Shown here: piece by piece, positions 31,961-48,251 of the stretch
Numbering within the stretch: position 1 is the stretch's first letter
How the letters are laid out: each line of letters opens with the position of its first letter
Virus record (IMG/VR): IMGVR_UViG_3300025276_000005
Location: 1-57,552 of that record
Reading direction: 5' to 3' (one strand)
From: a virus
Taxonomy: Duplodnaviria; Caudoviricetes
Length of the DNA: 57,552 nt
Translations under genes and position numbers: made by a program
The notes under the pieces: generated by a model
The model's database searches: none
What the model saw: the letters and a program-made list of their open reading frames with translations, nothing else
What the model was told of the DNA's origin: nothing

Positions 31961-31961
31961 A

Positions 31962-32102: not shown

Positions 32103-32636
32103 TGGGTAAAGATACAAAAATTATTAGATACATAGAGGTGGGAGGTTATATGTCATGTGAGGCAGCTTAGCCCTCGACAGAAACCGATTTTTTTCTTGGG
32201 GGTGGGGGTTGCCTTTTCATATTTTCATATCTATTTTTTTGGCTATTTAGATACGTGCATGTACCACCCTTCAGTTGCGCGTACACATATACCTACCTAC
32301 ATTCATCTGCTCATCACATCTTAATTCATCTAGCAATCTACATAGGTATCTAGTTAGTGATTGTGTTCCACTATATACAATGTCCGCTCAAGCGGATAGC
32401 CTTAGCTAAGGCATATGCATTCATTTTAAGCGCTTCCAGGAAACGCTATTTTTGACATCCTAGCAAAACAAAGGCATACAGAGGTATGACGTTATAACTG
32501 CCCTACACAATTTACCCATAAATAATCCCTAAACCTATTCCTCCCGCAATCCCTTTGCTAGTCAGATATTGAGAGAGTGAATGTCTAAACGTCAAAATAA
32601 ACTTTACATTAATATGCAAATTAGTTATGAATTAGT

Positions 32637-32666
32637 TTTGTACTACGGATTAATCGTCTATCTTTG
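32637..32666 (+). promoter_or_regulatory. Main early promoter, Bacteroidota sigma-A type
   Basis: TTTG (32637-32640), 18-nt spacer, TATCTTTG (32659-32666), at the start of the plus-strand arm. Confidence 0.75.
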
Positions 32667-32825
32667 CTTCAGCAATGGGAAGTATTGCTCGTTCTTTTCT
32701 TACTAACTAACTGATTATCAGATGATTGTCCTCTAAAAGCCCCACGAGATGGGAAGGAAGACAAGAATATCCCTTTATTTCCTAGGGTTTCTGCTGATTA
32801 GGGTGAGAGACATAATGTGAGAGGA

Positions 32826-32886
32826 TATCGTAATGCAGCCAAGGTGGTCACAAGCCCACAACCAAAAAGGGATGCAGAGTGAGATA
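32826..32886 (+). ncRNA. Twister self-cleaving ribozyme (type P1), copy 1; predicted cut U32831/A32832
   Basis: P1 TATC/GATA; U^AA; P2 TGCA/TGCA; GC; P4 GTGG/CCAC enclosing loop TCACAAGC; GAGT. Both pseudoknots (AC/GT, GC/GC) can form. Confidence 0.88.
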
Positions 32887-32903
32887 ACAATTAAACCAAG
32901 ATT

Positions 32904-33032
32904 ATGAAAGAAAAAGATGAGTTTCCTGAAATGGAATTGTATGAACACTATTCTTTTTATGTAGAGAATTGTGTAGACGAAGATAAGGGAGAAATACCTT
33001 TAGGCTTTGACGAATGGAAAATAAACCAATAA
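32904..33032 (+). CDS. 42-aa acidic early peptide, absent from the ORF track
   Basis: MKEKDEFPEMELYEHYSFYVENCVDEDKGEIPLGFDEWKINQ, preceded by the recurring AAACCAAGATTATG start context. Confidence 0.55.
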   Translation: MKEKDEFPEMELYEHYSFYVENCVDEDKGEIPLGFDEWKINQ

Positions 33033-33053
33033 ACCAACTAAACAATAGAAATT

Positions 33054-33761
33054 ATGCCAAATCATTGCAGTAATCATTTAGAAGTAAGCGGAAGTGTAAA
33101 AGAAATGAAAAAGTTTTACGACCATTTATCATTTATCCCTGAGCAAGATCAAGAAAGTTACAATTTTGACTTTAACGACTTTATACCTATGCCTAAAAGC
33201 TTAGATATAATAGCAGGCTCTAGGGTTAATCGCGCTGTTGAAGTTTTAAACGGAGAAGCCAACATGGGTCCAGGAGGAGATTACCCTAACATTACACCTG
33301 AAGATATTGAGTTAGGTAAAACATACCTAAGCAATATGAAGAAGTACGGACATGGAGACTGGTACAGCTGGTCTAACGCTAACTGGGGAACCAAATGGAA
33401 CGCCTATGACGGTTATGCTAATTCAGTAGAAGACGACTATTTTGGAGTTGGCTTTTCTACGGCTTGGTCTCCACCAATGCCTTTATTAGCAAAAATCTGT
33501 GAGCTTTTTCCTAACCTAACTATACAAATGGAATACCAAGAAGAAGGTATGGGATTCGCTGGAGTCGCAGGATCTAATCCAGGAGAAGAGCCTTACGACA
33601 ACGAAGGTGAAATAGTTTACCTAAGTAGCTGTTGTAATAAAGATGTAAACGAAGAAGTTCACATGCAGGAGTGTGAGGACAGCGACTTAGAGAATTGGGA
33701 AATTTGCCCTAAGTGTAAAGAGGAATGCGAATCAATTAGTGAAGTAATTTATAACAACTAA
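33054..33761 (+). CDS. YubB/DUF1281-like ferredoxin-fold early protein with a Cys-rich C-terminus
   Basis: MPNHCSNHL, FNDFIPMP, WYSWSNANWGTKWNA, FSTAWSPP, YQEEGMGFAG. Confidence 0.75.
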   Translation: MPNHCSNHLEVSGSVKEMKKFYDHLSFIPEQDQESYNFDFNDFIPMPKSLDIIAGSRVNRAVEVLNGEANMGPGGDYPNITPEDIELGKTYLSNMKKYGHGDWYSWSNANWGTKWNAYDGYANSVEDDYFGVGFSTAWSPPMPLLAKICELFPNLTIQMEYQEEGMGFAGVAGSNPGEEPYDNEGEIVYLSSCCNKDVNEEVHMQECEDSDLENWEICPKCKEECESISEVIYNN

Positions 33762-33771
33762 AACCAAGATT

Positions 33772-34458
33772 ATGAACAAATTCAACGAATTATTAGCAGC
33801 AAAAAGTGGTGTAAACATCAAGAAAGTTAATACCATTAAGGGACAGATTAACAAGCTAGAGTCTAACAAGTTTGACAAGCAGATTGAGTTATCAAGAATC
33901 TGCTGCTCAGCGGAACAATGGTTTAAGTTAGCAGAAACCAAGCAACATATGAAAGATGCAGAGATTGAGATGACGATGGACAAGTTTGGAAATGATACGT
34001 TTGGATTCAAAAGAAGCCAATGGTCATTGTATAGACAAGTGGGTAACTTACTTACTGAGAAAGAAGAATTACTTGCAACATTCATCGCTGATAGAGAAGA
34101 AAAGGTAGCTAACAATGAAACCCCAAACAAATCATTAAAGGCCTTAAAGGATTGGATGATTAATGATGGTGTAGAGGAAGCAGAAGCAGAAGCAGAAGCA
34201 GAAGCAGAAGAGGAAGCAGAAGCAGAAGCAGAAGCAGAAGAAAAGACTAACTACATTGTTAGTTTTGCTATCAAAGGAGAGCATTTTGAAGATGGCAAAG
34301 GAGTTAGTATTAGAATAGCTGAAAGCGGAATTGTAGAGGGAGACATTGAAAAGATACCAAGTGGATTGAGAAAAGAGTTAGCGAAGTTATCATCTCAGAT
34401 AGCTTTAAAGCAACCAAATGCGATTGTGGAAACCAAAGGTAAGAGTGAATCAAAATAA
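33772..34458 (+). CDS. Early protein with an acidic (EA)n linker
   Basis: 228 aa; GAAGCA tandem repeats. Confidence 0.7.
   Translation: MNKFNELLAAKSGVNIKKVNTIKGQINKLESNKFDKQIELSRICCSAEQWFKLAETKQHMKDAEIEMTMDKFGNDTFGFKRSQWSLYRQVGNLLTEKEELLATFIADREEKVANNETPNKSLKALKDWMINDGVEEAEAEAEAEAEEEAEAEAEAEEKTNYIVSFAIKGEHFEDGKGVSIRIAESGIVEGDIEKIPSGLRKELAKLSSQIALKQPNAIVETKGKSESK
34174..34242 (+). repeat. In-frame hexamer tandem repeat (GAAGCA)n in two blocks
   Basis: Encodes EEAEAEAEAEAEEEAEAEAEAEE. Confidence 0.9.
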
Positions 34459-34464
34459 TCTAAG

Positions 34465-34492
34465 ATGGATGTCCGCTTAAGCGGATGTCCAT
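34465..34492 (+). repeat. Conserved hairpin family TCCGYT(N2)ARCGGA; other copies at 32381, 34827, 35641, 36533, 37579, 38688, 41344 and 48220
   Basis: ATGGATGTCCGCTTAAGCGGATGTCCAT. All copies lie in gaps between convincing genes. Confidence 0.9.
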
Positions 34493-34544
34493 TCCGTATA
34501 CAAGTGAGTGCTTGTACTGATGAGACTAAAAGGTTGAAACGGGA
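34492..34544 (+). ncRNA. Hammerhead self-cleaving ribozyme (type III); predicted cut after GUA at 34498
   Basis: Stem III TTCCGT/ACGGGA; stem I TACAAG/CTTGTA; core CTGATGA (34517-34523); stem II GAC/GTT; GAAA (34536-34539). Confidence 0.85.
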
Positions 34545-34566
34545 AATTAACTTAATACTGAGTGAT

Positions 34567-34818
34567 ATGGAAATTAAAAGAATTGTAGTAGTAATGGATG
34601 TTATTACTGAGGAAAAAACCACATTATATAATGCGTTATCTCTAGAGGATAATTTAATATCTACTATCATAACTTTAACAGAAGATAGCAGGAAAATAAT
34701 GGAATTTGCGTATAGGAATAAGGTATCAATAGACGCAAAGATTGAGAGTATACAATCAAAAAATGGTAGTATTAAAGCATATAGTCAAGCATTCGACATG
34801 ATTGCTTACGAAGGATAA
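34567..34818 (+). CDS. Early hypothetical protein (start re-called at ATG 34567)
   Basis: The longer ORF-track version would run through the hairpin and the hammerhead. Confidence 0.6.
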   Translation: MEIKRIVVVMDVITEEKTTLYNALSLEDNLISTIITLTEDSRKIMEFAYRNKVSIDAKIESIQSKNGSIKAYSQAFDMIAYEG

Positions 34819-34870
34819 AATTAACTAATGGATGTCCGCTTAAGCGGATGTCCATTTAAAACAAAGCATT

Positions 34871-35041
34871 ATGATTACGACAAAACACAGAATTACATAC
34901 GCTAGATGCATTGACTCGGGGATGAGCAGTGCGTTACAGATAGCTACCATCTTTAAGATGGTGTATGACATCACAGATGGTAAAGCATTAAAGCTAACGA
35001 TGGCTTGTGCTGATTACTACAATGAAACACTAACTAAATAA
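34871..35041 (+). CDS. 56-aa early protein, absent from the ORF track
   Basis: MITTKHRITYARCIDSG...; A-rich leader after the hairpin. Confidence 0.5.
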   Translation: MITTKHRITYARCIDSGMSSALQIATIFKMVYDITDGKALKLTMACADYYNETLTK

Positions 35042-35050
35042 GCAGAAATT

Positions 35051-35200
35051 ATGAGCAAATTTACTTTAACAATCATCACAATCTTAGCTACTACGCTAAC
35101 GATTATGGTGTACACAATGTCCAATTGCCTAGAGATTAAACTTCTAATTACGCTAATGGACTTACCGATTATTTTACTGATTGCAAACGAGTTAAACTAA
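35051..35200 (+). CDS. 49-aa hydrophobic (two-segment) early protein, absent from the ORF track
   Basis: MSKFTLTIITILATTLTIMVYTMSNCLEIKLLITLMDLPIILLIANELN. Confidence 0.5.
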   Translation: MSKFTLTIITILATTLTIMVYTMSNCLEIKLLITLMDLPIILLIANELN

Positions 35201-35205
35201 AAGTT

Positions 35206-35583
35206 ATGAAAAAGCGAGTAATTAACTTAGTAATAGATGCGTGTTATCTCATAGACAAAAAACGTGGTGTATTAAAGAATTACGAATATGAGACTGCGCC
35301 ATATTGTGGTCATCATAGGAGTGGAACAGATGGGGTTCTGTATAGTTCTTCTTACGCAGAAGGCGATGGTGGAGAGTCTGCCCATATAATTGGCTTTAGG
35401 TTTACTAAAAGCACAGATGATGAGTATTGGTGGAGTTTTAGATACAAGGTAGTGCGAGAGGTGTTTAACGATGGGTTATTTATAGCAGAGTCAAAATACA
35501 CCACATTCTTAAATGAGTTAAAGGCAGTATTCTTTTACCACAAACACGGATTCAGCCTTAGGTACAGAATAAAAACAAAATAA
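35206..35583 (+). CDS. Early hypothetical protein
   Basis: 125-aa ORF. Confidence 0.6.
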   Translation: MKKRVINLVIDACYLIDKKRGVLKNYEYETAPYCGHHRSGTDGVLYSSSYAEGDGGESAHIIGFRFTKSTDDEYWWSFRYKVVREVFNDGLFIAESKYTTFLNELKAVFFYHKHGFSLRYRIKTK

Positions 35584-35616
35584 ATTAGGTTATGTCTAAT
35601 TTATAATGTATATTTG
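35582..35616 (+). promoter_or_regulatory. Operator/promoter unit 1
   Basis: AAATTAG-N7-CTAATTT, 6 nt, then TATATTTG. Confidence 0.75.
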
Positions 35617-35684
35617 ACTAATTAATAACTAATAACCTATTAGATGTCCGCTTAAGCGGATGTCTGATAATTAAAACCAAGAAG

Positions 35685-36026
35685 ATGAACACGATTTTAG
35701 AAAGAAAAGTGCAATTTAGTGATGATGTAGAAGACACAATGTACACGTCTGATATAATGAGTTACTACAAGATAGACGCAGACACTCAGTTTATAAAGGA
35801 CTTTGATAATTGGATGAAAGAAGGTGGAGGAATAAACAGAGCCACATATAACCTAATTATAAGCAAGAGGGATATAGGCTTGTTTTGTTTAGGAATGAAG
35901 CCAAACGCACAATGGAGACTGAAAGACCTTAAGGCTTACTTTGGAATAAAAGGCAATAAGGAAAAGTGCAAAGAGTTGATAGAGGTATTAACAGAATTAT
36001 TTATACCACAGAGCAATGAAGGGTAA
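35685..36026 (+). CDS. Early hypothetical protein
   Basis: 113-aa ORF following the promoter and hairpin. Confidence 0.65.
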   Translation: MNTILERKVQFSDDVEDTMYTSDIMSYYKIDADTQFIKDFDNWMKEGGGINRATYNLIISKRDIGLFCLGMKPNAQWRLKDLKAYFGIKGNKEKCKELIEVLTELFIPQSNEG

Positions 36027-36156
36027 GGCGATAGTAATAGATGGTCACTTAGTTAAGCTAGATAAAGAGGGTAACTTCTTTAGGCTTAACGGAAGTGGTG
36101 TATGGGTGCAGATAAGTAATCAAGAACTTTTTAAAATTATAAGCGATGAAGTATAA
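36016..36156 (+). CDS. 46-aa early protein, absent from the ORF track
   Basis: MKGKAIVIDGHLVKLDKEGNFFRLNGSGVWVQI...; overlaps each neighbour by 11 nt. Confidence 0.5.
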   Translation: MKGKAIVIDGHLVKLDKEGNFFRLNGSGVWVQISNQELFKIISDEV

Positions 36157-36457
36157 AGGATGGACAAACAGAGCGACTTGGTTATTCAATGTTTACTATG
36201 GAGACAAAATAAATAACGAGGACGACTTCAACAGAGAAAAAAACCAATGCGAAGAAGATCACGAGAACCTAGTGAACACTATAGGCACTTGTATATGGTC
36301 TGATATGATTGATATTAGAGAGATAAACTTTGTCGAGTTATTTGAGACGATGAGTTCAGATTGGGATGAGTTTAAATGCGAGATGTGTGAAGAGTCAATG
36401 ACTGAGGAAGACCATCACTTTTGTGATATATGTGGAGATTGCCGGGATGGGGAATAA
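36146..36457 (+). CDS. Early acidic protein with a C-terminal Cys cluster
   Basis: YKGWTNRATW N-terminus; CEMC...CDICGDC. Confidence 0.65.
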   Translation: MKYKGWTNRATWLFNVYYGDKINNEDDFNREKNQCEEDHENLVNTIGTCIWSDMIDIREINFVELFETMSSDWDEFKCEMCEESMTEEDHHFCDICGDCRDGE

Positions 36458-36470
36458 AATAAGTTAAAAT

Positions 36471-36505
36471 AAATTAGGTCATGTCTAATTCATAACTTAT
36501 ATTTG
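36471..36505 (+). promoter_or_regulatory. Operator/promoter unit 2
   Basis: AAATTAG-N7-CTAATTC, 6 nt, then TATATTTG. Confidence 0.75.
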
Positions 36506-36566
36506 CCTAATCAATAACTAATTAACTAACAATGTCCGTTCAAGCGGACTTATTAAAACCAAGATT

Positions 36567-36767
36567 ATGGCGCAGAAGACAATAAAGAAAGGTGAGGGCT
36601 ACGAGGTAGTCGCTCACTACACCAACAATGAGTTTGGACTTGAGGTCACATCAGTTGACTACGAGTGTAGTGTAACTAATTGTGTGGTTCCTATAGATAC
36701 CTTCCTATACGATTTCCTAAGTGTAGGAGCAATTAACGAAATGGAAGACAAACTAAAACAAGACTAA
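36567..36767 (+). CDS. Early hypothetical protein
   Basis: 66 aa; AAAACCAAGATTATG start context. Confidence 0.6.
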   Translation: MAQKTIKKGEGYEVVAHYTNNEFGLEVTSVDYECSVTNCVVPIDTFLYDFLSVGAINEMEDKLKQD

Positions 36768-36771
36768 GATT

Positions 36772-36939
36772 ATGGGACAGATGAAAGAATTATTTATCTC
36801 AATGCAAGAAGGACTTATGCAAGGGATAACAATCACAAACGCTCAGCGTGAGCGTGACTTACAAGAGGAAGAGCAAGGAGAGTCGGGCAAGGTAGGAATT
36901 ATTAACACACCTAAAGACAATAGCGATGAAGAACAATAA
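36772..36939 (+). CDS. 55-aa early protein, absent from the ORF track
   Basis: MGQMKELFISMQEG...; fills the gap between two ORFs. Confidence 0.5.
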   Translation: MGQMKELFISMQEGLMQGITITNAQRERDLQEEEQGESGKVGIINTPKDNSDEEQ

Positions 36940-37210
36940 ACTTATAGCAGAATTTATGGGGTTGAAAGAGCATAAAGGCTCATACTACATACCACTTTAT
37001 AATAGTGGGGATTGGGTTCCCGATGTTGAGTTAGATTATCACACCTCTTGGGATTGGCTTATGCCTGTGGTAATGAAAATATCAGGCAAACTAAATAAAC
37101 CTCTTGATGAGATTATTTCACTCCTTACGGAGGTTAATAGCGATAATATATGGGATATTAAGTCTTTGTATAGTGCAGTAGTAGAATTTATTAAAAACCA
37201 AACCAACTAG
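36926..37210 (+). CDS. Early hypothetical protein
   Basis: NNKLIAEFMG...YHTSWDWLMPVV...YSAVVEFIK, a pattern I recall from Bacteroidota phages. Confidence 0.65.
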   Translation: MKNNKLIAEFMGLKEHKGSYYIPLYNSGDWVPDVELDYHTSWDWLMPVVMKISGKLNKPLDEIISLLTEVNSDNIWDIKSLYSAVVEFIKNQTN

Positions 37211-37215
37211 AAATT

Positions 37216-37572
37216 ATGAGTAAAGAAAGAAGTTTTACAAAGGATGACGTAGTTAATGCTATGGTAACAGAGTTACGAAAAAAGTCAATATTCGTAACCT
37301 ACAAAGGTAGAAAAATGCTACCTCAAATATCTCACCACATCCCAAAGAGTATGATTAAATCAGACAACCCAATATACCTTAGATGCTACAAGAGGCTTTG
37401 GAAAGAAAGCAGAAAGATAGATAACCCAATAGAGGTTAAAGAGCCTAAAGTTAGTCCATCTGTTATTCAAAGAGAGCGTATCGTTAAATCTTCTAGCAAG
37501 GTGGTTATAAACATGAAGGATAGAGTCATTACAATAGAGGATGGCAAAGACATCAACATAAGTTATAGATAA
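37216..37572 (+). CDS. Early basic hypothetical protein
   Basis: 118-aa ORF. Confidence 0.6.
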   Translation: MSKERSFTKDDVVNAMVTELRKKSIFVTYKGRKMLPQISHHIPKSMIKSDNPIYLRCYKRLWKESRKIDNPIEVKEPKVSPSVIQRERIVKSSSKVVINMKDRVITIEDGKDINISYR

Positions 37573-37601
37573 AACAACAGAGTCCGTTCGAACGGACTCT
37601 T

Positions 37602-37665
37602 TCTTTAATGTCACTAAGGTGGTCACAAGTCCATCAATCTAAGAGTTAGAGAGACAGAGTGGAGA
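37602..37665 (+). ncRNA. Twister self-cleaving ribozyme (type P1), copy 2; predicted cut U37606/A37607
   Basis: P1 TCTT/GAGA; U^AA; P2 TGTC/GACA; AC; P4 GGTGG/CCATC enclosing loop TCACAAGT; P5 TCTAA/TTAGA; GAGT. Compensatory changes relative to copy 1. Confidence 0.9.
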
Positions 37666-37692
37666 TAATTAAAAAACAAAACAACTAAAATT

Positions 37693-38025
37693 ATGGGATA
37701 CAGAAGCGAAGTTTACATAGCAATACCAAAGGCAGATGAGTTAGAATTAGATGCTATATTAATAGAGCACCATTTATTTGGTGGAGATTACTTTACTAAA
37801 ACTAATTATTTAGGGTACGTAACCTATCATTGCCCACATCTTAAATGGCATAGTCACTATAATGATGTAAGAGCAGTAAATGATTTTATATCAGAAATCC
37901 CTCTAGATAATTTCCCAAAAGAAGGTAGATGCTTGGTGTGTGTTGGAGAGGATGATAGGATACACTCAGATATAGGAGAATATCAAGAGGTATTCAATAT
38001 ATATACTAAAGTAGAACTACAATAG
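37693..38025 (+). CDS. Early hypothetical protein
   Basis: MGYRSEVYIAI...LKW...VGED. Confidence 0.65.
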   Translation: MGYRSEVYIAIPKADELELDAILIEHHLFGGDYFTKTNYLGYVTYHCPHLKWHSHYNDVRAVNDFISEIPLDNFPKEGRCLVCVGEDDRIHSDIGEYQEVFNIYTKVELQ

Positions 38026-38148
38026 AAAACGAGAGTACCAAGCGTGAGTTGGGCATATAGTAAAAAGTCCTAACAGGGGTGTTAGGCAAAAGTCAGTGTC
38101 GGAAGGGGGCTTTCCTCCCCTTTCCTTCATAACTAAAACAAGACTAAG

Positions 38149-38304
38149 ATGGACTTACGAGATATTACGATAAAGATAGAGGCATACGCCAACCAAAGAG
38201 TAATAGAGGAGTTGGAGGAGTTACTAAGAAGAGCTGAAGGTAGTGGTAGAAATATAACTAATGTTGAATTATCTTTAATAATCAAATATCTAAAACAAGA
38301 CTAA
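38149..38304 (+). CDS. 51-aa early protein, absent from the ORF track
   Basis: MDLRDITIKIEAYANQRVIEELEELL...; AAAACAAGACTAAGATG start context. Confidence 0.5.
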   Translation: MDLRDITIKIEAYANQRVIEELEELLRRAEGSGRNITNVELSLIIKYLKQD

Positions 38305-38305
38305 G

Positions 38306-38524
38306 ATGCCTGCAGCAAGACAAGAGTATGTAAAAAGTAAATATCAAGGAGTATCAGGGGTTATGACTAAAGGCGTAGTTAAATGGCGTGTAAACATCGC
38401 AGGAGTAGGACGTGCTAATTTAGCTTCTGAAAGAGAATGTGCTATTGCAGTAGATAAAATTAAAATAAGTCAAGGTAAAGAACCCGTTAATATACTAAAG
38501 AGAGTTAAAATAATTAGTCTATGA
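38306..38524 (+). CDS. AP2-like DNA-binding protein
   Basis: SKYQGV...KWRVNI...SERECAIAVD resembles the AP2 domain pattern. Confidence 0.6.
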   Translation: MPAARQEYVKSKYQGVSGVMTKGVVKWRVNIAGVGRANLASERECAIAVDKIKISQGKEPVNILKRVKIISL

Positions 38525-38545
38525 CTAATTTATAACTTATATTTA
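38511..38545 (+). promoter_or_regulatory. Operator/promoter unit 3
   Basis: AATTAGTC-TAT-GACTAATT followed at the same spacing by TATATTTA (one mismatch to the -7 box). Confidence 0.6.
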
Positions 38546-38556
38546 CATAATTATTA

Positions 38557-38682
38557 GTGGTCAACTTGGTTTCTCCGATGTCTTGGGGACTGAAGGATTG
38601 TCTGCTTATGGTTAATAGTCGTGACCACGTGGGTGTTTTTAATGCTTCACCTATTCATAACGACAAAGACAGTCAAAGACAT
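38557..38682 (+). ncRNA. Unassigned structured RNA (long interrupted hairpin with a possible pseudoknot)
   Basis: Nested stems ATGTCTT/AAGACAT, GACTG/CAGTC, TTGTC/GACAA, TTATG/CATAA, GTGGGTG/CACCTAT, plus GTGGTCA/TGACCAC. Confidence 0.55.
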
Positions 38683-38729
38683 TAATTGGATGTCCGCTTA
38701 GGCGGACATCTACTTTAAACTAAAAACAT

Positions 38730-40609: not shown

Positions 40610-40610
40610 T

Positions 40611-41345: not shown

Positions 41346-41433
41346 TCTGTTCGAACAGACTCACACAGATGGCAATTCGTGATGCTTCCCTAGTTACGAT
41401 GAGCCTTTTTTAAAAGGGAATTAAATTTATATT

Positions 41434-41706: not shown

Positions 41707-41730
41707 TTCCCCCCGCAAATTAGATTATAG

Positions 41731-41764
41731 AGTGGATAGGCGTAAAAGTCTATCCACTTTTTTT
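41731..41764 (+). terminator. Intrinsic terminator downstream of the SSB gene
   Basis: AGTGGATAGGC-GTAAAA-GTCTATCCACT followed by a T run. Confidence 0.85.
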
Positions 41765-41766
41765 AC

Positions 41767-41940
41767 CAATGTTAACTGACGATTTTATTTTCCTATATAC
41801 TATTATATATTTTTATACTATTTATTATTTTTTTTTATCTACATTTGAAGGATAAAGTTAACATTATTAACACTACTATTGATAATCAAAGTGTTACCTT
41901 TTAATTTTTAACATAAAACAAACACAATGTCAACATTAAA
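41767..41940. repeat. AT-rich element, copy B (candidate replication origin) upstream of the primase-helicase
   Basis: Same ordered motifs as 31506-31680. Confidence 0.5.
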
Positions 41941-44314
41941 CGTCACGATATTTAAAAATATCAAGGAAACTGCGACTCCATTCTACAGGGAAGTCAGTGT
42001 AGTACTACAAAGAATTAAGGAAGGGGCATCTAAAGACTTAGTAAAAAGTATACGGTCAGAGAAAGATAAGCCACAACGAAACGAACTTAAGAAATTACTT
42101 CCTGCAATATGTTTCTCAGGTACATTCACAAAAAGAAACGACACATCACTAACAGAACATAGTGGTTTAATATGCTTAGACTTTGATGGCTACCCTAAGA
42201 TGAAGGATATGCTAGAAGAGAAAGAGAGGTTGAGTAAGAACAGATACATATACTCTGTGTTTATATCGCCATCGGGTAATGGTTTAAAAGCTTTAGTTAA
42301 AGTACCACAAGATGCCGACAACCACGTAAACTACTTCAATTCTTTAGAGAAGCACTTCAACTCAGAGTTCTTTGATAAGACCTGTAAGAATATATCAAGA
42401 GTTTGTTACGAATCGTATGACCCTTTGGTTTACGTTAACGAGACATCTTCTTTATGGGATACGATAGAGGATTTAGAGTACAAGGAGATTTCAATAATCA
42501 GAGATGCTCCTACGATACCAATTACAGACGAGAATAAAATAGTTGAGATACTCGTTAAGTGGTGGACAAAGAAATACCCAATGGCTGAGGGTCAGAGAAA
42601 TCAGAATGCTTTTATTCTAGCTATGGCTTTCAATGACTACGGGGTTAATAAGAGTTTATCTTCTTACGTTCTTAACGGATACGCAAACGAAAGCTTTAAC
42701 TTGAATGAGATTGAGAGAACAATTGACTCTGCTTATGCGAACACTCAAAACTTTGGGAGTAAGTACTACGAGGATGAGGAGAGAGTTAACAACATCAAGT
42801 CTCAGTTCAGAAGAGGTGCGACAAAAAAAGAAATCCGTCAAGAATTAGAGGACTCGAATCTAGACGGAGCAGTTATCGAGTCAGTAATGACCAAAGTCTT
42901 AGACGAGAATGCTCTTAAGCAGTTTTGGACAAAGAGCGATAAGGGTGCTATTAAAATAGTTCACATCCTTTTTAAGACGTTCTTAGAGGATAACGGCTTC
43001 TATAAGTATTGTCCGGAGGGAGGAAAGAACTACGTCTTTGTAAGGGTCACAAACAACCTCATAGACCACACGTCAGAGAAGGAGATAAAGGACTTTATAT
43101 TAGGTCACTTAATTTCTCTAGAGGATTTGAGTATATATAACTACTTCGCAGATAACACTAGGTTGTTTAGAGAGGAATTCCTTACACTACTATCTACGAT
43201 TGACATCTACTTCATATCAGATACCAAAGACTCAGCTTACTTGTACTATAAGAATTGTGCAGTACAGATAACTAAGGATGGTGTTAAAGCAATTGACTAC
43301 TTAGACTTGGGTGGTTACGTTTGGAGTGACCACGTTATAGATAGGAACTTTAACATATGTGATGTAGGTAATTGTGATTACAAGACATTCATAAGTAACG
43401 TAAGTGGTAGAGACCCTAAAAGAGTCCTTACAATGGAGAGTACGATAGGGTTTATGCTACACGCACATAAGAACTTAGCTTACTGCCCTGCTATCATACT
43501 AAACGATGAGGTTATATCAGACAATCCTGAAGGTGGTACGGGTAAAGGTTTATTTATGAATGCCCTATCTAAGATGAAGAAGGTTGTTACGATTGACGGT
43601 AAGTCATTCACGTTTGAGCGTTCGTTTGCGTACCAACTTGTATCGGCTGACACTCAGATACTTGTATTTGATGACGTTAAGAAACACTTTGACTTCGAGA
43701 GATTGTTCAGTGTAGTTACAGAAGGTTTGACTTTAGAGAAGAAGAATAAGGATGCTATTAAAATTCCGTTCAGCAAATCTCCAAAGGTTGCTATAACAAC
43801 TAACTACGCGATTAAAGGTTCGGGTAATTCATTTGCTAGACGTAAATGGGAGCTAGAACTATGTCAGTACTACAGCAAAGACTTTACTCCTTTAGACGAG
43901 TTCGGAAAGTTAATGTTCGGAGATTGGGGCGATGACGAGTGGTGTGGTTTTGATAACTATATGATTGGATGCCTTCAAGAGTATTTACTTAATGGGTTAC
44001 AGTTTAGTGAGTCCACAAACGGACCGACCAAGATACTATCACAAACAACTAACCACGAGTTTATTGAATGGTGTGGTCTTGTAGAAGGTGTGGAGGGCTC
44101 AGCGTATCTACCGGTAGATGTTAAGTTGAATTGTCAGCAGTTATACTATGACTTTATGGAGGAGTATCCGCAATACTCAAAAGGCAACGGAAACACTTTA
44201 TCAAAAGCAGCGTTCTATAAGTTCTTAGTTGAGTACGCTAAGTTTAAAGAAGGTGTTAAGCCTGATGTTGGTAGAGATGTACAAGGAAGATTTATGGTAA
44301 TTAAAACAAAATAA
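41927..44314 (+). CDS. Primase (VirE-N/BT4734-like, plus PriCT) fused to an SF3-type helicase
   Basis: KKLLPAICFSGTF, HSGLICLDFD, FISPSGNGLK, RVCYESYDP; EGQRNQNAF; Walker A GGTGKG, FDDV, ITTNY. Confidence 0.85.
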   Translation: MSTLNVTIFKNIKETATPFYREVSVVLQRIKEGASKDLVKSIRSEKDKPQRNELKKLLPAICFSGTFTKRNDTSLTEHSGLICLDFDGYPKMKDMLEEKERLSKNRYIYSVFISPSGNGLKALVKVPQDADNHVNYFNSLEKHFNSEFFDKTCKNISRVCYESYDPLVYVNETSSLWDTIEDLEYKEISIIRDAPTIPITDENKIVEILVKWWTKKYPMAEGQRNQNAFILAMAFNDYGVNKSLSSYVLNGYANESFNLNEIERTIDSAYANTQNFGSKYYEDEERVNNIKSQFRRGATKKEIRQELEDSNLDGAVIESVMTKVLDENALKQFWTKSDKGAIKIVHILFKTFLEDNGFYKYCPEGGKNYVFVRVTNNLIDHTSEKEIKDFILGHLISLEDLSIYNYFADNTRLFREEFLTLLSTIDIYFISDTKDSAYLYYKNCAVQITKDGVKAIDYLDLGGYVWSDHVIDRNFNICDVGNCDYKTFISNVSGRDPKRVLTMESTIGFMLHAHKNLAYCPAIILNDEVISDNPEGGTGKGLFMNALSKMKKVVTIDGKSFTFERSFAYQLVSADTQILVFDDVKKHFDFERLFSVVTEGLTLEKKNKDAIKIPFSKSPKVAITTNYAIKGSGNSFARRKWELELCQYYSKDFTPLDEFGKLMFGDWGDDEWCGFDNYMIGCLQEYLLNGLQFSESTNGPTKILSQTTNHEFIEWCGLVEGVEGSAYLPVDVKLNCQQLYYDFMEEYPQYSKGNGNTLSKAAFYKFLVEYAKFKEGVKPDVGRDVQGRFMVIKTK

Positions 44315-44574: not shown

Positions 44575-45812
44575 AAACTGTTCAGTGGAGAGAATACCAA
44601 TCGGATATAATTGGTAGAGCCACAAACATACTGAAGACCAAGAACTTCGTGTACCTAGCAATGGAAGTTAGGACGGGAAAGACTTTAACAAGTCTTGGTA
44701 TATGTGAGAAAATGGAGGCTCAGAATGTTCTGTTCCTAACTAAAAAGAAAGCGGTGCAGTCAATTAGCGATGACTACGACAAGTTATGCCCTATTCGATT
44801 CACTTTGTTTACAATCAACTACGAATCAATGCACAAGGCTCCTAACTTAAAGTGGGACTTAATTATATGTGACGAGGCTCATAGTCTTGGAGCGTTTCCT
44901 AAACCAAATAACAGGTCAAAAGCTGTAAGGGATTTAATATTAAAGACTAAGGCAAAGGTTATACTCTTATCAGGGACACCAACTCCTGAGTCTTATAGTC
45001 AGATGTACCATCAGATATATGGAATCAAGGGAAACCCGTTTGCTAACTTTAAGAACTTCTATAGGTTCTGCGATAGGTTTGTAGATGTAAGAGAGAGAAA
45101 GATAAACGGTCTAATGATTAGAGATTACTCAAAAGGTAGACAAGAGATATTGGATGCGGTTAAACCATTCACTATAAGCTTAACTCAGAAGGAAGCCGGT
45201 TTTGTAACTGAGACCACAGAAGAAGTTCTTGAGGTGAAGATGCTCGATACCACGTACAACCTAGCCAAGAAGCTAAAGAAAGATTTAGTTGTTGAAGGTT
45301 CAGACGAGGTTGTGTTAGCAGACACTCCGGTAAAGTTGATGATGAAGTTACATCAGATATACTCAGGCAGTGTGAAGTTTGAGAGTGGTAACTCAAAGAT
45401 ACTTGACTACTCTAAGGCTGAATTTATTAAGGAGCATTTCAAAGGTAAGAAGATTGGTATCTTCTATAAGTTCAAGGAAGAGTTGAACGCCTTAAAGCAA
45501 GTGTTTGGTGATGAGTTAGTAACTGAGCTTAGTCCGTTCGAGCGGACTAATAAGAATATAGCCCTTCAGATTGTATCAGGACGTGAGGGCATCTCACTGA
45601 GACACGCTGACTGTTTGGTTTACTACAACATTGACTTCAGTGCTACAAGCTATTGGCAGTCAAAGGATAGGATGACAACCAAAGAGCGTCTTAAAAACAA
45701 GGTCTATTGGATATTTGCCAAGGGAGGTATTGAGACTGAGATATATAAGGCGGTTACAAAGAAGAAGGATTATACACTAAGACACTTTAAAAGAGATTTA
45801 TTATCTTTATAG
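44568..45812 (+). CDS. SF2 (SNF2-like) helicase (start re-called at ATG 44568)
   Basis: REYQ, MEVRTGKT, DEAH, LSGTP, SGREGISL, QSKDR. Confidence 0.85.
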   Translation: MVETVQWREYQSDIIGRATNILKTKNFVYLAMEVRTGKTLTSLGICEKMEAQNVLFLTKKKAVQSISDDYDKLCPIRFTLFTINYESMHKAPNLKWDLIICDEAHSLGAFPKPNNRSKAVRDLILKTKAKVILLSGTPTPESYSQMYHQIYGIKGNPFANFKNFYRFCDRFVDVRERKINGLMIRDYSKGRQEILDAVKPFTISLTQKEAGFVTETTEEVLEVKMLDTTYNLAKKLKKDLVVEGSDEVVLADTPVKLMMKLHQIYSGSVKFESGNSKILDYSKAEFIKEHFKGKKIGIFYKFKEELNALKQVFGDELVTELSPFERTNKNIALQIVSGREGISLRHADCLVYYNIDFSATSYWQSKDRMTTKERLKNKVYWIFAKGGIETEIYKAVTKKKDYTLRHFKRDLLSL

Positions 45813-45813
45813 A

Positions 45814-46065: not shown

Positions 46066-46354
46066 ATTTGATGCTGCGTTTATGGATTACCTATCAGACT
46101 TTTACGAGGATGAGCAGGACGATATAATCAAGCAGTTAATATTTAACGATGACATTCTACCTAAGCAAGACGATTACACTCAGCATTTAGGGGGTAGGCT
46201 GAATAATAATAAGGTTTACTTTATACTAGAGTTTATAAATGAGACCCATTACGAAAGCCCTATCTATTTAGATGTTGAGGAGATAACACTAGACGAGTAT
46301 TTAGATTTAATGATTAAAAAAGAAACACTACAAAGAGATGAAGACGGGATTTAG
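46022..46354 (+). CDS. Acidic hypothetical protein
   Basis: 110-aa ORF. Confidence 0.55.
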   Translation: MDSEQKSTEGKKTLRFDAAFMDYLSDFYEDEQDDIIKQLIFNDDILPKQDDYTQHLGGRLNNNKVYFILEFINETHYESPIYLDVEEITLDEYLDLMIKKETLQRDEDGI

Positions 46355-46874
46355 AGAAGAGACAATACTAGAGAAAAGCGATAGACTATTATCTATCGTT
46401 GAGTCAGTTTACAGTTTAGACTTAAAAATAAAGAGCAGAAAGAGGGAGTATGTATCAGCTAGAATTTCATACTGCGTAATGCTTAGGGATTTAGGTTTTG
46501 GGTACGCTAAAATTGGAAAGATTGTGGGTAAGTGCCACGCTACAATAATCTACTACTATAATTTGTTTGATGCTTACGAGAAGACTGATAATAGATTTAG
46601 AAAGTTTCACGAAAAAATACTTTATCAATTCCATAAAGATGACGTTACTATTTTTGATGTGGAAAAGTTAGAGTTAGAAAGTAAAGTTAATATTTTGAAT
46701 TTAAGGGTAAAAGAATTAGATTCGCACAACGCAAATCTCACATCTAAACTTGAAAGAATAGAGGAGTACAATAAAAAGAACGAGTCTATGCACAGGTTAA
46801 TAAACCAAAAGGTTACACCTGCAACAGAAAAAGAAATAGAGTTAAAGTTAAATAGGTTTTTCAATGGGCTATAG
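46338..46874 (+). CDS. DnaA domain IV-like HTH protein with a C-terminal coiled coil
   Basis: KSRKREYVSAR...LGFGYAKIGKIVGKCHATIIY. Confidence 0.7.
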   Translation: MKTGFREETILEKSDRLLSIVESVYSLDLKIKSRKREYVSARISYCVMLRDLGFGYAKIGKIVGKCHATIIYYYNLFDAYEKTDNRFRKFHEKILYQFHKDDVTIFDVEKLELESKVNILNLRVKELDSHNANLTSKLERIEEYNKKNESMHRLINQKVTPATEKEIELKLNRFFNGL

Positions 46875-47100
46875 TAAAGATAATTTAGAGGAGTTAATGG
46901 GCGTAAGTTCTTTAACCACTAAGCAGAAAATAGATGAGCTACTACGTATAGATTGTAAGATGTATACCAACCTAGGTTCAGACTCTACAGCTAAAGAAGT
47001 TAGCTTAGTTAAGACGTTATCTAAAAAGATATACAAACACATAAAGGTATTAGACCCAACTATGGGTAAAACTTTTCTAACCGCAATAGACTCAAAGTAA
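46864..47100 (+). CDS. Hypothetical protein
   Basis: 78-aa ORF. Confidence 0.6.
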   Translation: MGYSKDNLEELMGVSSLTTKQKIDELLRIDCKMYTNLGSDSTAKEVSLVKTLSKKIYKHIKVLDPTMGKTFLTAIDSK

Positions 47101-47101
47101 A

Positions 47102-47290
47102 ATGTCGTTAACATACTATCAACAATCAAGATTAAAGAATATAAACCTGTTGATGGATGAGATACACGACTCTACTAATAAGGTCTACGAACACTTAGCT
47201 GACAAGGAAAGTAAAGAGGCTAAGGCAGAGGTTAGAGCATTGATTAAGAAGCTAGATAATTTAATAAGCTCCTTAGAGGATGAGTCTTAA
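47102..47290 (+). CDS. Small coiled-coil protein
   Basis: 62-aa ORF. Confidence 0.55.
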   Translation: MSLTYYQQSRLKNINLLMDEIHDSTNKVYEHLADKESKEAKAEVRALIKKLDNLISSLEDES

Positions 47291-47666
47291 AGTTTGCACC
47301 GACTGTAAGGAAGAGAGACCGCCAAATTATTATTGGTCAGCCGGAGTTAAGAACGGTAAGAAGTACTACAGAAATGTGTGCAAGATTTGCTACAATACCA
47401 CTAAGCATAGCTACAAGCATAAGATAAAGGCTTGGTTTAAAGATTATAAACAAAGCTTAGAGTGCTTAAAGTGTGGGTACTCTAAGAAGACACACAAGAC
47501 ATTTAATGTTAAAGCTCTAGAGTTTCATCATACAGATGAAAACAAGGAGTTCTCTGTGTCTGAGGGAGTTTGTGATGGGTTAGCAATCAAGAGGATAATT
47601 AAAGAAATAAAAAAGTGTCAGGTACTTTGTGCTCGATGTCACGCAGAGCACCACTATGAGGTTTGA
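47280..47666 (+). CDS. HNH-family endonuclease with Zn-binding CxxC motifs
   Basis: CTDC, CKIC, CLKCG...LEFHH...KCQVLCARCHAEHH. Confidence 0.8.
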   Translation: MSLKVCTDCKEERPPNYYWSAGVKNGKKYYRNVCKICYNTTKHSYKHKIKAWFKDYKQSLECLKCGYSKKTHKTFNVKALEFHHTDENKEFSVSEGVCDGLAIKRIIKEIKKCQVLCARCHAEHHYEV

Positions 47667-48066
47667 AAATAAAGCTGACTTAATAAGAGAGGAGCAGGCT
47701 ATACAAAAGTTTGTTGATATTTTCGGTGGTAGCTTCAAGAAGTTAGGACCGAACGATATCGATTACAGAGTGTTTAATAGCAGCAAAGAACTCATTGCTT
47801 ATGTTGAGGTTAAAGGAAGGTTAAGACCCCTTAAAGAAGCTTATCCTCTACCTGTTTCGGCTAGTAAGATAGTCAGGCTATGCGATAAGAGGTTGAATCC
47901 TGTAATGATATGGGCGTGTGAGGATGGCATCATCTACGCTAAGGTTTCGGAAATACAGGGCGATGTTAGGTGGGGCGGTAGAAAGCCAAGGGCTAGCTCA
48001 GTTAATGACGAGGAGCTAATGATTTATTATAACCAACAAAAAGGATTTAAGTATGTACGATTCTGA
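47656..48066 (+). CDS. PD-(D/E)XK nuclease-like protein (start probably ATG 47656)
   Basis: DIDYRV...IAYVEVKGR. Confidence 0.65.
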   Translation: MRFENKADLIREEQAIQKFVDIFGGSFKKLGPNDIDYRVFNSSKELIAYVEVKGRLRPLKEAYPLPVSASKIVRLCDKRLNPVMIWACEDGIIYAKVSEIQGDVRWGGRKPRASSVNDEELMIYYNQQKGFKYVRF

Positions 48067-48219
48067 GACACCTGACATCAAAGAGTTTATCTTTGCAGTC
48101 GTTGTAAATGCAATAATTCTTTATACAATATACTACTATATATAAAAAGTATTAGTATATTTGCTCTGACTATTGTACTAAATGAGTTGAACTTGACGTT
48201 GACATGTGTAGTTCTATTG

Positions 48220-48251
48220 GAGAGTCCGTGTGAACGGACTCTCTTTTTTTT
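48220..48251 (+). terminator. Terminator between the two converging arms
   Basis: GAGAGTCCGT-GTGA-ACGGACTCTC followed by T8. Confidence 0.85.

Follow-up and report, generated by a model that had tools for sequence, protein, structure and literature searches.

A family of hairpins along the plus-strand arm

The stretch of DNA analysed here (IMGVR_UViG_3300025276_000005, 57,552 nt, hereafter the window) is the complete 57.5 kb genome of a marine, Bacteroidota-type podophage. Its plus-strand arm encodes a Sak-type annealing protein, an exonuclease and two proteins with a DnaA-C type helix-turn-helix (39341–39640 and 46338–46874), and is dotted with copies of a palindrome, GTCCG-N6-CGGAC (GTCCGNNNNNNCGGAC). 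With up to two mismatches, this pattern matches the window 14 times versus 3.98 ± 1.75 expected from 100 shuffles, none of which reached 14; with at most one mismatch it occurs at 11 places, as against two for a reversed pattern used as control. Of the 14, the match at 21793 is probably due to chance, its centre being unlike that of the family. A previous reading of the sequence alone (the sequence-only reading) had placed nine copies on the plus arm (32381, 34465, 34828, 35641, 36533, 37579, 38688, 41344 and 48220) and had assigned the same core to the terminator of the major capsid gene (12335–12358). All ten are present where it had located them, but its list lacked three family-like copies (45532, 55390 and 55744), and its account of the family mentioned neither the ribozymes beside some hairpins nor the coding-sequence copies, nor that each related phage has a version of its own.

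The hairpins of the window lie past stop codons, 15–19 nt ahead of the next ATG, or 6 nt ahead of a predicted ribozyme cut. The first, TGTCCGCTCAAGCGGAT (32381–32397, plus strand), has a G-U closing pair and is located in the plus arm's long non-coding leader, where a second hairpin that does not belong to the family follows it directly, up to position 32413. Two identical extended hairpins of 28 nt (34465–34492 and 34828–34855, both plus), with a 12-bp stem containing tandem U-G/G-U pairs, bracket a single hammerhead-plus-gene unit: the former begins 6 nt past the stop of the ORF at 33772–34458 and adjoins the hammerhead, and the latter lies 9 nt past the stop at 34818 and 15 nt upstream of the ATG at 34871. 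The former folds at -19.8 kcal/mol on the plus strand versus -14.3 on the minus strand. Another extended copy (35641–35666, plus; -19.1 versus -10.3 kcal/mol) is found 24 nt downstream of a promoter-like box, TATATTTG (35609–35616), and 18 nt upstream of the ATG at 35685, and a minimal copy with a U-G at pair 6-11 (36533–36549, plus) has much the same setting, 27 nt downstream of TATATTTG (36498–36505) and 17 nt upstream of the ATG at 36567. The hairpin AGAGTCCGTTCGAACGGACTCT (37579–37600, plus) starts 6 nt past the stop at 37572, has a T-rich tail and stands directly ahead of a twister. An extended copy at 38688–38711 (plus), all Watson-Crick except for its outer G-U pairs, precedes the ATG at 38730 by 18 nt. 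Altogether, four copies of the window lie 15–18 nt upstream of an ATG, and those at 34828, 35641 and 38688 are strong (around -19 kcal/mol).

The copy at 41344–41361 (plus) overlaps the stop codon of the exonuclease gene and displays a GTCTG core, the type used by the relative L005; both L005 and a further relative, L048, have a copy at this same position. The copy at 45532–45547 (plus) lies within the ORF of a SNF2-type helicase, over the codons S-P-F-E-R-T. Two more coding copies are found on the minus strand, both in an ORF of 2611 aa: a GTCTG-type copy (55390–55405) that encodes part of a repeated peptide, EESVPTDFT, and a copy at 55744–55759 whose U-G pairing exists on the minus (transcribed) strand only. 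Finally, the family stem is part of two terminators, one at the end of the plus arm (48220–48243, plus; GUGA loop and T8 tail), the other after the major capsid gene (12335–12358, minus; U-G pair, GUAA loop and U-tract), which folds at -20.4 kcal/mol on its transcribed minus strand versus -16.4 on the opposite one. The terminator ahead of the primase gene is a hairpin outside the family.

Predicted ribozymes beside the hairpins

A probable type III hammerhead ribozyme (34493–34546, plus) directly follows the first of the 28-nt hairpins. It reads TCCGTA/TACAAG..CTGATGAG..GAAAC GGG, the slash marking the predicted cut (34498/34499), which falls 6 nt past the hairpin; stems I, II and III have 8, 4 (with two wobble pairs) and 5 bp, and the cleavage triplet is GUA. 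This ribozyme was predicted by a regex scan with stem checks, which looked for CUGANGA and GAAA cores, three stems and a cleavage triplet with a non-G last base, and it scores poorly against Rfam Hammerhead_3 (13.4 bits, E=3). In related loci, regex scanning yielded 26 further type III candidates arranged in the same way. A probable type-P1 twister ribozyme (37602–37665, plus; Rfam twister-P1, 28.3 bits, E=1.4e-4 on 141 nt) has its predicted cut at 37606/37607, which we take to be inside the UAA motif, again 6 nt past a family hairpin (37579–37600). A further probable twister-P1 (32827–32885, plus; 36.3 bits, E=5e-5 to 3e-4) lies in the plus-arm leader, not adjacent to any family hairpin. Both twister matches are under the Rfam gathering score of 67.2, and indeed every ribozyme match in the window scores below its Rfam gathering threshold; the conserved twister blocks UAA, GGUC-CAAG-CC and GAG do align in both, which are probably shortened variants of twister-P1.

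A stricter scan of the window and its relatives retained 40 hammerheads, 27 of them of type III. A family hairpin ends 6–18 nt ahead of the cut in 18 of these 27, and eight of the other nine have, by eye, another GC-rich hairpin there. The association takes a different form in type I hammerheads, where the family hairpin constitutes stem III itself in six of the nine found in genomes carrying the family; the Rfam RAGATH-1 hammerhead alignment likewise has a family hairpin as stem III in L005.

Pairing depends on the transcribed strand

The sequence-only reading had described the substitutions as compensatory or as yielding G-U pairs, which is indeed the case in the window (G1-T16 in four copies; T6-G11 at 36534 and 45532). 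In the copy at 41345, C4>T is paired with G13>A, and the copies at 12339 and 55744 have G-U pairing on the minus (transcribed) strand only. Its preference for a hairpin of RNA or single-stranded DNA over a palindrome in double-stranded DNA is also supported, the family behaving as a strand-specific hairpin at the level of RNA and not just as a DNA palindrome: the type of mismatch, the orientation of the loop and the folding energy all favour the transcribed strand. Copies with one mismatch in plus-coding context have 11 G-U, no A-C and 13 other mismatches. The loop centre on the transcript strand is CA in 74 and TG in 26 unique intergenic copies; counted by locus, CA outnumbers TG in 20 and the reverse holds in four, with five ties (p=0.0015), and copies beside type III hammerheads have a UCAA loop in 19 cases and a UUGA loop in none. 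Among 281 unique segments, the transcribed strand folds better by 0.65 kcal/mol (Wilcoxon p=0.001), and it does so in 26 of 37 loci. The difference is greatest beside ribozymes and U-tracts, small for plain intergenic copies (-0.35; 63 versus 52) and absent as a strand asymmetry for copies within ORFs (-0.14 kcal/mol), and at pair 6-11 no preference for G-U was seen (14 T-G versus 16 C-A). The symmetry of a double-stranded operator is present, yet the dyad is not independent of the strand, since mismatches, loops and energies all depend on it.

Each related phage repeats its own hairpin

We examined 82 sources, namely 81 related loci and the window. A 5-6-5 palindrome is repeated at least three times in 37 of them, amounting to 287 copies, 256 of which are perfect. 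Each phage repeats its own core (GTGTC, GTCTC, GTCTG or GTCCG) in similar contexts, and 212 of 214 palindromes of the form GTNNN-NTYRAN-NNNAC carry the dominant core of their genome. In MW202828, 14 identical copies and one with a G-T mismatch are all found in 11.5 kb of a 60.85 kb genome. A type III hammerhead core lies directly downstream of 34 of the 256 perfect copies, seven cap stem III of a type I hammerhead, 16 have a U-tract, and 83 are located within ORFs. Where an intergenic copy has an ORF start within 120 nt (n=131), it lies 15–25 nt upstream of that start in 53 cases. A TAnnTTTG box occurs within 60 nt upstream of 15 of the 173 intergenic copies, versus five downstream as a control. 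Three relatives (L007, L073 and L079) have stems with non-palindromic loops of 4–5 nt, and the hairpin family is absent from eight of the 33 full-length related loci, the device therefore being dispensable.

The helicase site offers an orthologous position, which could be located in 74 loci via its flanking codons. All five core pairs are present in 33 of them, with four different cores, and in the 25 fully paired loci with a called family, the core at this site is without exception the genome's own. The in-frame site has been altered through substitution and not insertion, and the amino acids differ between phages in such a way that pairing stays. In the 68 alignable loci of the 74, 68.1% of cells are paired versus 59.2% after shuffling (none of 500 shuffles as high), with a covariation score in the true register of 0.164, a value also reached by the slide-by-2 control (0.177).

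A putative cap for the ends of early transcripts

We propose, with a confidence slightly better than even, that the family is a lineage-specific RNA stem-loop capping the transcript ends of early (plus-strand) mRNAs. The element consists of GUCCG, a Y-R pair, a U-N-N-N tetraloop and CGGAC, and is often extended to 9–12 bp. What the sequences show is the position of the copies, their strand asymmetry, their adjacency to ribozyme motifs and, in relatives, a like layout with other stems. Each copy would sit just past a stop codon, with a ribozyme cut site, a U-tract or the A-rich leader of the next gene directly downstream, so that the upstream RNA would finish in the hairpin. Ribozyme cleavage, termination or trimming by nucleases would leave this stable structure at the 3' end, where it may protect the RNA against 3' exonucleases while keeping the next start region unstructured; a polycistronic early transcript could in this way be converted into discrete, stable mRNAs. 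From the sequences, we infer that such cleavage and protection would take place in vivo; the phage was absent from the RNA runs searched. Of the roles that the sequence-only reading had listed, that of a transcript-end protector fits best, because the hairpins stand 6 nt ahead of predicted ribozyme cuts or carry U-tracts. It makes little sense for the copies inside ORFs (83 of the 256 perfect ones). To account for the single sequence per genome, we favour a sequence-specific factor that would bind the hairpin and co-evolve with its stem (a search for a candidate protein found none), the alternative being homogenisation via recombination at the hairpins.

The palindrome might instead be the double-stranded operator of a dimeric phage regulator, possibly a repressor that would act at many sites, as on stoperators, to block early transcription or shut it off, the RNA hairpin then being a by-product reused in terminators and ribozyme stems. 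The 5-6-5 geometry, with half-site centres 11 bp apart and a conserved symmetric TTYRAA centre, would suit such an operator, as would the pyrimidine-purine step in 264 of 287 copies, the dominance of a single sequence per genome (212/214) and the near-perfect 16-bp dyad, whose 14 identical copies in MW202828 would also be in keeping with a dimeric DNA-binding protein. One third of the copies lie in coding sequence, without strand asymmetry, and the arm encodes the two helix-turn-helix proteins. Nevertheless, we consider an operator unlikely: imperfect copies have 11 G-U and no A-C mismatches, loop orientation follows transcription (20 loci versus four, and 19 versus none beside hammerheads), the related stems of L007, L073 and L079 have non-palindromic loops, the fixed distance of 6–18 nt to ribozyme cuts has no rationale at the level of DNA, and no cognate regulator was found, no protein tracking the core type among the window, L005 and L048. 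It is similarly doubtful that the hairpins act mainly as the borders at which mobile gene cassettes recombine, evolving in concert without a specific binding factor, with identity within a genome both cause and result of exchange. Homology blocks between the window and L005 do begin or end at hairpins, in shuffled order; the two 28-mers (34465 and 34828) have one hammerhead-plus-gene unit between them, and their identity ends exactly where the palindrome does; and junctions of 41362 with 34493 (two runs), of 37663 with 35666 (four) and of 34550 with 35044 (one) occur in metagenome contigs, all of them at boundaries of hairpins, ribozymes or leaders. The annealing protein and exonuclease of the arm could serve such exchange, for which there is a precedent in the PeSLs (promoter-early stem-loops) of T4-type phages, documented as repeated promoter-plus-stem-loop motifs for modular shuffling (PMC2839356; PMC4122927). 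Yet 16 nt is very short for homologous exchange, and the helicase site, substituted and tracking the family core in 25 of 25 loci, would require conversion tracts without flanking homology. Moreover, only two of 214 copies deviate from their genome's type, the indels that separate L048 from L045 (96% identical) do not have hairpins at their ends, and mosaic junctions at gene boundaries are found in most phages anyway.

It appears very unlikely that every copy is an ordinary intrinsic terminator or attenuator for the host RNA polymerase and that the stems are alike by common descent only. Two of them are textbook terminators with U-tracts (48220, and 12335 on the minus strand), a third (37579) has its T-rich tail, and U-tracts accompany 16 of the 256 perfect copies. 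But most copies lack a U-tract, as the sequence-only reading had noted: the plus-strand terminator scan was passed by 48219–48244 and, marginally, 37579–37600, the other eight of ten plus-arm copies failing; on the minus strand, 12335–12358 has its U-tract as well. Besides, two copies lie 24–27 nt downstream of promoter-like boxes and one inside the helicase ORF, the primase gene is preceded by a terminator outside the family, and descent from a common ancestor leaves the concerted switches of core at orthologous sites unexplained. N4-type hairpin promoters have a stem of 5–7 bp and a 3-nt loop, and the idea of N4-style hairpin signals read as the DNA enters, also raised by the sequence-only reading, is hardly credible here, whether as promoters or as single-stranded DNA sites for a polymerase carried in the virion, even though copies lie upstream of early genes, their sequence is lineage-specific as with phage polymerase promoters, and the giant 2611-aa ORF adjoins the arm. 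No RNA polymerase domain was detected among the 78 ORFs, although a very divergent enzyme might escape detection; searches of PDB and Pfam gave no match for the 2611-aa protein, which also lacks the D-[FYWLIV]-D-x-D motif (catalytic in crAss-type polymerases). The loops have 4–6 nt and not three, copies serve as stem III of hammerheads and as terminator stems, others are found within coding sequence, and boxes of the host type (TAnnTTTG) occur, in the window ahead of two copies.

Comparison with known systems

The transcript-end cap proposed here recalls several known devices. In the early mRNA of T7, hairpins between early genes are cut by RNase III, leaving protective 3' stem-loops; these sites are long irregular duplexes cleaved by a host enzyme, whereas the stems described here have 6–12 bp and are therefore too short for RNase III. 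The stem-loop at the 3' end of histone mRNAs and the repeat hairpins of Cas6/Csy4 are alike in shape (16 nt, a 6-bp stem and a 4-nt loop, with a cut a few nucleotides downstream), and a protein that remains at the 3' end recognises their sequence. The analogy is one of mechanism only; no homologous protein was found, and cleavage would here be made by a ribozyme.

Stabilisation of mRNAs by the REP (repetitive extragenic palindromic) elements of bacteria is classic work. REPs, to which both 3' stabilisation of mRNA and a role in termination have been attributed (in what PMC3733652 says of them), resemble the family in being species-specific short palindromes after genes. However, the family belongs to a phage early operon, has about one third of its copies in coding sequence and is coupled to ribozymes; the GTAG/CGTC tag of REPs was not seen by eye in the window copies inspected, nor was a Y1 (RAYT) transposase found among its 78 ORFs. 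The PeSLs of T4-type phages are conserved, repeated stem-loops at mosaic junctions between small early genes (PMC2839356; PMC4122927). As far as these accounts describe them, they have in common with the family that stem-loops are repeated among small early genes of no assigned function. A host-type early promoter sometimes accompanies PeSLs, of which the TAnnTTTG boxes may be a counterpart, and the family too may lie at mosaic junctions. They differ in that PeSL stems are portrayed there as poly-G/poly-C terminators, whereas the conserved part of the family is a 16-nt palindrome whose core varies by lineage, many copies lie by ribozymes or in coding sequence, and a promoter box is nearby in just 15 of 173 intergenic copies.

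Finally, for polycistronic transcripts of bacteria and phages it has been proposed that intergenic hammerheads and twisters divide operon RNAs into parts that differ in stability (PMC6765202; PMC3088659). As far as consulted, these accounts describe no partner hairpin, whereas in the present phages the cut regularly has a stable hairpin ahead of it, being a family hairpin in 18 of the 27 type III hammerheads and another hairpin in eight more.

A hairpin family in the early gene arm

All nine copies of the 5-6-5 stem-loop (GTCCG-N6-CGGAC) that a sequence-only reading had reported from this genome were recovered, at the same coordinates. Allowing up to two mismatches, the pattern occurs at 14 places in the window (3.98 ± 1.75 in shuffled sequence), and with at most one mismatch at 11 (2 for a reversed control pattern). 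This adds copies at 45532 (plus strand, inside the helicase ORF) and at 55390 and 55744 (minus strand, inside a giant ORF whose peptide repeat EESVPTDFT they encode); a match at 21793 looks like a chance occurrence. Ten of the 13 credible copies fall within the 16-kb plus arm. The stem has five base pairs and then a sixth, of Y-R type, beneath a tetraloop; longer versions are frequent. The same 28-mer, with a tandem U-G/G-U, forms the copies at 34465 and 34828 and has 22 nt in common with the one at 35641. For these three copies and for 38688, the folding energy is about -19 to -20 kcal/mol for the plus strand versus -10 to -16 for the minus strand. A stop codon lies 6-9 nt 5' of copies 34465, 34828 and 37579 and is overlapped by copy 41344, and an ATG follows 15-18 nt 3' of copies 34828, 35641, 36533 and 38688, after a leader of the TTAAAACCAAG type. 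Read on the minus strand, the element at 12335-12358 forms a terminator.

Two copies are preceded, 24-27 nt upstream, by a TATATTTG box inside a repeated block of ∼60 nt (ATTAGGTyATGTCTAATTyATAAnnTATATTTG...; 35584-35640 and 36470-36532, plus strand), partially present a third time at 38525-38545. We take TAnnTTTG to be the Bacteroidota -7 promoter box, and the block looks like a promoter of this type. Between the partial repeat and hairpin 38688 lie ∼160 nt of non-coding, predicted structured sequence (38525-38687, plus strand) with no match in Rfam at E-values up to 10, of which 38557-38628 is 87.5% identical to positions 6599-6670 of the related phage locus L005.

Genome context

The 57,552 bases represent the whole virus record and encode a portal, large terminase, major capsid protein, crAss-type muzzle domain, GroEL/GroES and PhoH, as well as a primase-helicase, an SNF2-type helicase, a Sak annealing protein and an exonuclease. 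Genes point rightward between ∼32.16 and 48.07 kb and leftward on both sides of this arm (1 to ∼32.1 kb; 48.25 kb to the end), in agreement with the GC-skew switch. In the divergent region between the arms (31452-32156), which could correspond to an origin, genome ends or divergent promoters, a TA run is accompanied by several repeats resembling AAAGTTAACATT and by a GC hairpin GAGGGAATTAACCCTC bordered by A8. A strong terminator outside the family (41729-41765, plus strand; GTGGATAGGC..GTCTATCCAC, then T7) is followed by a TACATTTG box at 41840-41847 (plus strand), 5' of the primase gene, suggesting that the replication genes are transcribed as a unit of their own. The giant ORF (48250-56085, minus strand, 2611 aa; 3859 aa in its MW202828 counterpart) carries EELYSFFNEEGYD-like and EESVPTDFT repeats in its acidic N-terminal region, and has no Pfam or PDB match; PHROGs and Pfam gave almost no matches for the early ORFs.

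The closest public phage is MW202828.1 (71% primase identity), remoter matches being mostly Flavobacteriia phages; no near match was found in the phage collection searched by DNA. The DNA runs containing the window sequence are of marine origin; for positions 32300-42200, no RNA run was listed.

The hairpin core changes in concert among related phages

At least 597 related stretches were found in the viral-contig collection; 80 loci were kept which, with MW202828 and the window, make 82 sources. A 5-6-5 palindrome is present at least three times in 37 of them, many of the remaining loci ending short upstream; among 33 full-length loci, eight are devoid of any hairpin family. The core (the 5-nt stem half) is GTGTC in 25 sources, GTCCG in five, GTCTC in four, and GTCTG, GTACG and GTTGC in one each, and other lineages carry repeats of different geometry (GGTTCAC-N4-GTGAACC, GGGGAGC-GCAAT-GCTCCCC, GGTTGCG-N4-CGCAACC). 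Over all cores the consensus is GT-NNN-T-T-Y-R-A-A-NNN-AC, and 212 of 214 palindromes of this type carry the dominant core of their genome; two genomes are mixed, among them the window, whose 41345 copy has a GTCTG core. MW202828 has 14 identical copies plus one G-T variant, all within 43.7-55.2 kb of its 60.85 kb.

Each genome's own core also turns up at orthologous sites, for example at the stop codon of the exonuclease gene, in the terminator closing the arm, in the hairpin preceding the hammerhead and in the promoter-proximal hairpin of a GATase/GGACT gene. The strongest case of concerted change is the helicase gene, where the site was located via its flanking codons and not via pairing. 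Among 74 loci, five core pairs form in 33, four in six, and three or fewer in 35, the paired forms encoding SVFEDT (GTC/GAC), SPFERT (CCG/CGG), GLFQQT (CTG/CAG) or SLFEET (CTC/GAG). Wherever a genome has a called family as well as full pairing at this site (25 genomes), the helicase core is that of the family. Across 68 alignable loci, paired cells amount to 68.1% versus 59.2 ± 1.0 when shuffled (0/500) and cells changed on both sides to 16 versus 4.6 (0/500), with the limit that sliding the partner by -2 as a control gave a covariation score equal to that of the true register.

Such concerted change needs either a factor reading the stem or very efficient homogenisation. Gene presence and absence in the ∼10 kb flanking the primase on either side, compared between 21 hairpin-rich and eight hairpin-less full-length loci, did not reveal a partner protein: the best candidates, a GATase/GGACT protein (17/21 versus 1/8) and a 318-aa ORF (14 versus 1), are both absent from the window. 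Residue patterns common to the window and locus L048 but not L005 yielded no outlier among 15 proteins, and a PDB sequence search gave no match for the MW202828 ORF annotated as 'repressor'. L048 and L045, two loci that are 96% identical, lie several substitutions apart within a single hairpin in the primase gene (L048 10564, L045 4648), which is of the GTCCG type in L048 and a partial TCTG..CAGA palindrome in L045.

Hairpins precede predicted RNA cut sites

Based on 256 perfect copies, some of which carry two tags so that the counts exceed this total, 118 are plain intergenic, 83 lie inside ORFs of at least 80 codons, 34 have a type III hammerhead core just downstream, 16 a U-tract and one a downstream twister, and seven cap stem III of a type I hammerhead. 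An ORF ends at most 120 nt upstream of 145 copies, and for 93 of these the distance is no more than 20 nt. An ORF start lies at most 120 nt away from 131 intergenic copies, 53 of them 15-25 nt and 44 of them 60-90 nt before it; the latter spacing is that expected if a ribozyme of 50-60 nt separates the hairpin from the ATG, spacing and ribozyme tags having been counted separately.

In the window, hairpin 34465-34492 stands directly 5' of a type III hammerhead candidate between early genes (34493-34546, plus strand; CUGAUGA and GAAA cores, three stems), with a predicted cut 6 nt past the hairpin and only 13.4 bits in Rfam; related loci hold 26 more type III candidates. Two probable shortened twister-P1 ribozymes lie at 32827-32885 (36.3 bits) and 37602-37665 (28.3 bits, E=1.4e-4 on 141 nt), both on the plus strand and below the Rfam gathering score of 67.2. 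The latter starts 2 nt past hairpin 37579-37600, with its predicted cut 6 nt past it. Both twisters contain the block GGTGGTCACAAG(C/T)CCA.

A stricter, stem-checked scan retained 40 hammerheads, 27 of type III and 13 of type I. A family hairpin ends 6-18 nt 5' of the cut in 18 of the 27; inspected by eye, the other nine have a different GC-rich hairpin there (eight) or a weak hairpin only (one). In six of nine type I hammerheads from genomes with the family, stem III is the family hairpin, as also seen in the Rfam RAGATH-1 hammerhead alignment of L005 3248-3354. The constant feature is thus a stable hairpin just 5' of a predicted RNA cut site, for which the family sequence is the usual, not obligatory, choice. 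Type III hammerheads of the window and related loci are placed between early genes and have a stem I loop of the GUGAGUG type and an AAAA stem II loop. In seven loci (L005, L048, L042, L043, L068, L076, L081), type I hammerheads are predicted to cut directly 5' of TTAACC-type leaders, with the ATG following ∼22-27 nt downstream.

In the GTCTC lineage the hairpin takes the anticodon-arm position of tRNA-like elements (locus L020, 1566-1650; locus L021, ∼1170-1240, 2070-2140 and 3590-3690), which have an acceptor stem, a GGTTCGAnTCC T-arm and no clear D-arm, followed by CTAAC and a T-run. ARAGORN did not recognize true tRNAs here (none in L021, only a distorted 85-nt tRNA-Lys in L020); the tRNA-like assignment is unproven, and the elements may serve as signals for processing by RNase P or RNase Z.

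Evidence for selection on the RNA hairpin

One-mismatch copies in plus-coding context comprise 11 G-U, no A-C and 13 other mismatches, or, after removal by eye of obvious duplicates and chance matches, ∼8 G-U versus 1 A-C on the transcribed strand. In unique intergenic copies, the central dinucleotide of the transcript strand is CA in 74 and TG in 26 (CA>TG in 20 loci, TG>CA in four, five ties; p=0.0015), and loops beside type III hammerheads read UCAA in 19 cases and UUGA in none. The transcribed strand folds better by a mean of 0.65 kcal/mol (281 segments, p=0.001; 26/37 loci), the difference reaching -1.9 to -3.3 beside ribozymes and U-tracts and being almost nil inside coding sequence (-0.14) and for plain intergenic copies (-0.35). 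Pair 6-11 is T-G in 14 cases versus C-A in 16. From mismatch type, loop orientation and strand folding we conclude that RNA hairpin formation is under selection.

Function of the hairpins

We regard it as somewhat probable, judging from sequence patterns, that the family forms an RNA stem-loop that would cap and insulate cistron ends in early transcripts together with ribozymes, and act as a terminator where a U-tract follows. A double-stranded DNA operator seems unlikely: its dyad symmetry, 11-bp half-site spacing and pyrimidine-purine centre would suit a helix-turn-helix dimer, as would the near-symmetry of coding and plain intergenic copies, yet mismatch type, loop orientation and folding follow the transcribed strand. 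Plain terminators are improbable, since the terminator scan, in line with the earlier remark that most copies lack a U-tract, found a plus-strand terminator-like tail only at 48219-48244 and marginally at 37579-37600. N4-style signals are least credible, no RNA polymerase having been found among the window's 78 ORFs.

We likewise doubt that the main function is that of a recombination cassette boundary, although homology blocks between the window and L005 start or stop at hairpins and differ in order, and one hammerhead-plus-gene unit lies between the identical 28-mers 34465 and 34828. Contigs from four DNA runs of other metagenomes also join 41362 to 34493, 37663 to 35666 and 34550 to 35044, all points at the edge of a hairpin, a ribozyme or a leader, as well as 37194 to 36928, indicating that these modules recur in related strains in a different order or combined with different inserts. 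Against this stands the L048/L045 pair, whose indels are not bounded by hairpins.

Beyond the preferred RNA stem-loop reading, we tentatively consider a 'hairpin code', a possible though doubtful scheme in which a putative phage or host protein would read the 16-nt stem-loop in a sequence-specific way and thereby mark early RNAs. The marked ends would be made by ribozymes, tRNA-like elements and terminators, and the recognised triplet would have switched several times between lineages (GTC, CCG, CTG, CTC), each switch dragging all copies along, in-frame helicase codons included. If a specific binding factor exists, these phages would offer compact, orthogonal hairpin-protein pairs; if not, they illustrate cleanly how very short palindromes evolve in concert. 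The family is a clear case of one short RNA/DNA element changing in concert genome-wide, enough to recode a helicase.

Relation to known systems

The purpose of most genomic self-cleaving ribozymes of bacteria and phages is called an open question in passages of one paper (PMC6765202), and this phage group, with its at least 597 related stretches, gives a regular, testable order of stop codon, hairpin, ribozyme cut, leader and start codon. The literature searched, subscription journals being outside its scope, held no description of this hairpin family, nor of a regular pairing of hairpin and ribozyme cut, a lineage-specific core or helicase recoding. The family is akin to known kinds, namely the promoter-early stem-loops (PeSL) of T4-type phages, repetitive extragenic palindromic (REP) elements and the ribozyme processing of operons, and the reordered homology blocks and contig joints resemble the PeSL cassettes (PMC2839356; PMC4122927). 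Should the hairpins indeed be read by a protein, bacterial viruses would have a counterpart of the histone stem-loop system in which ribozymes take the place of the nuclease.
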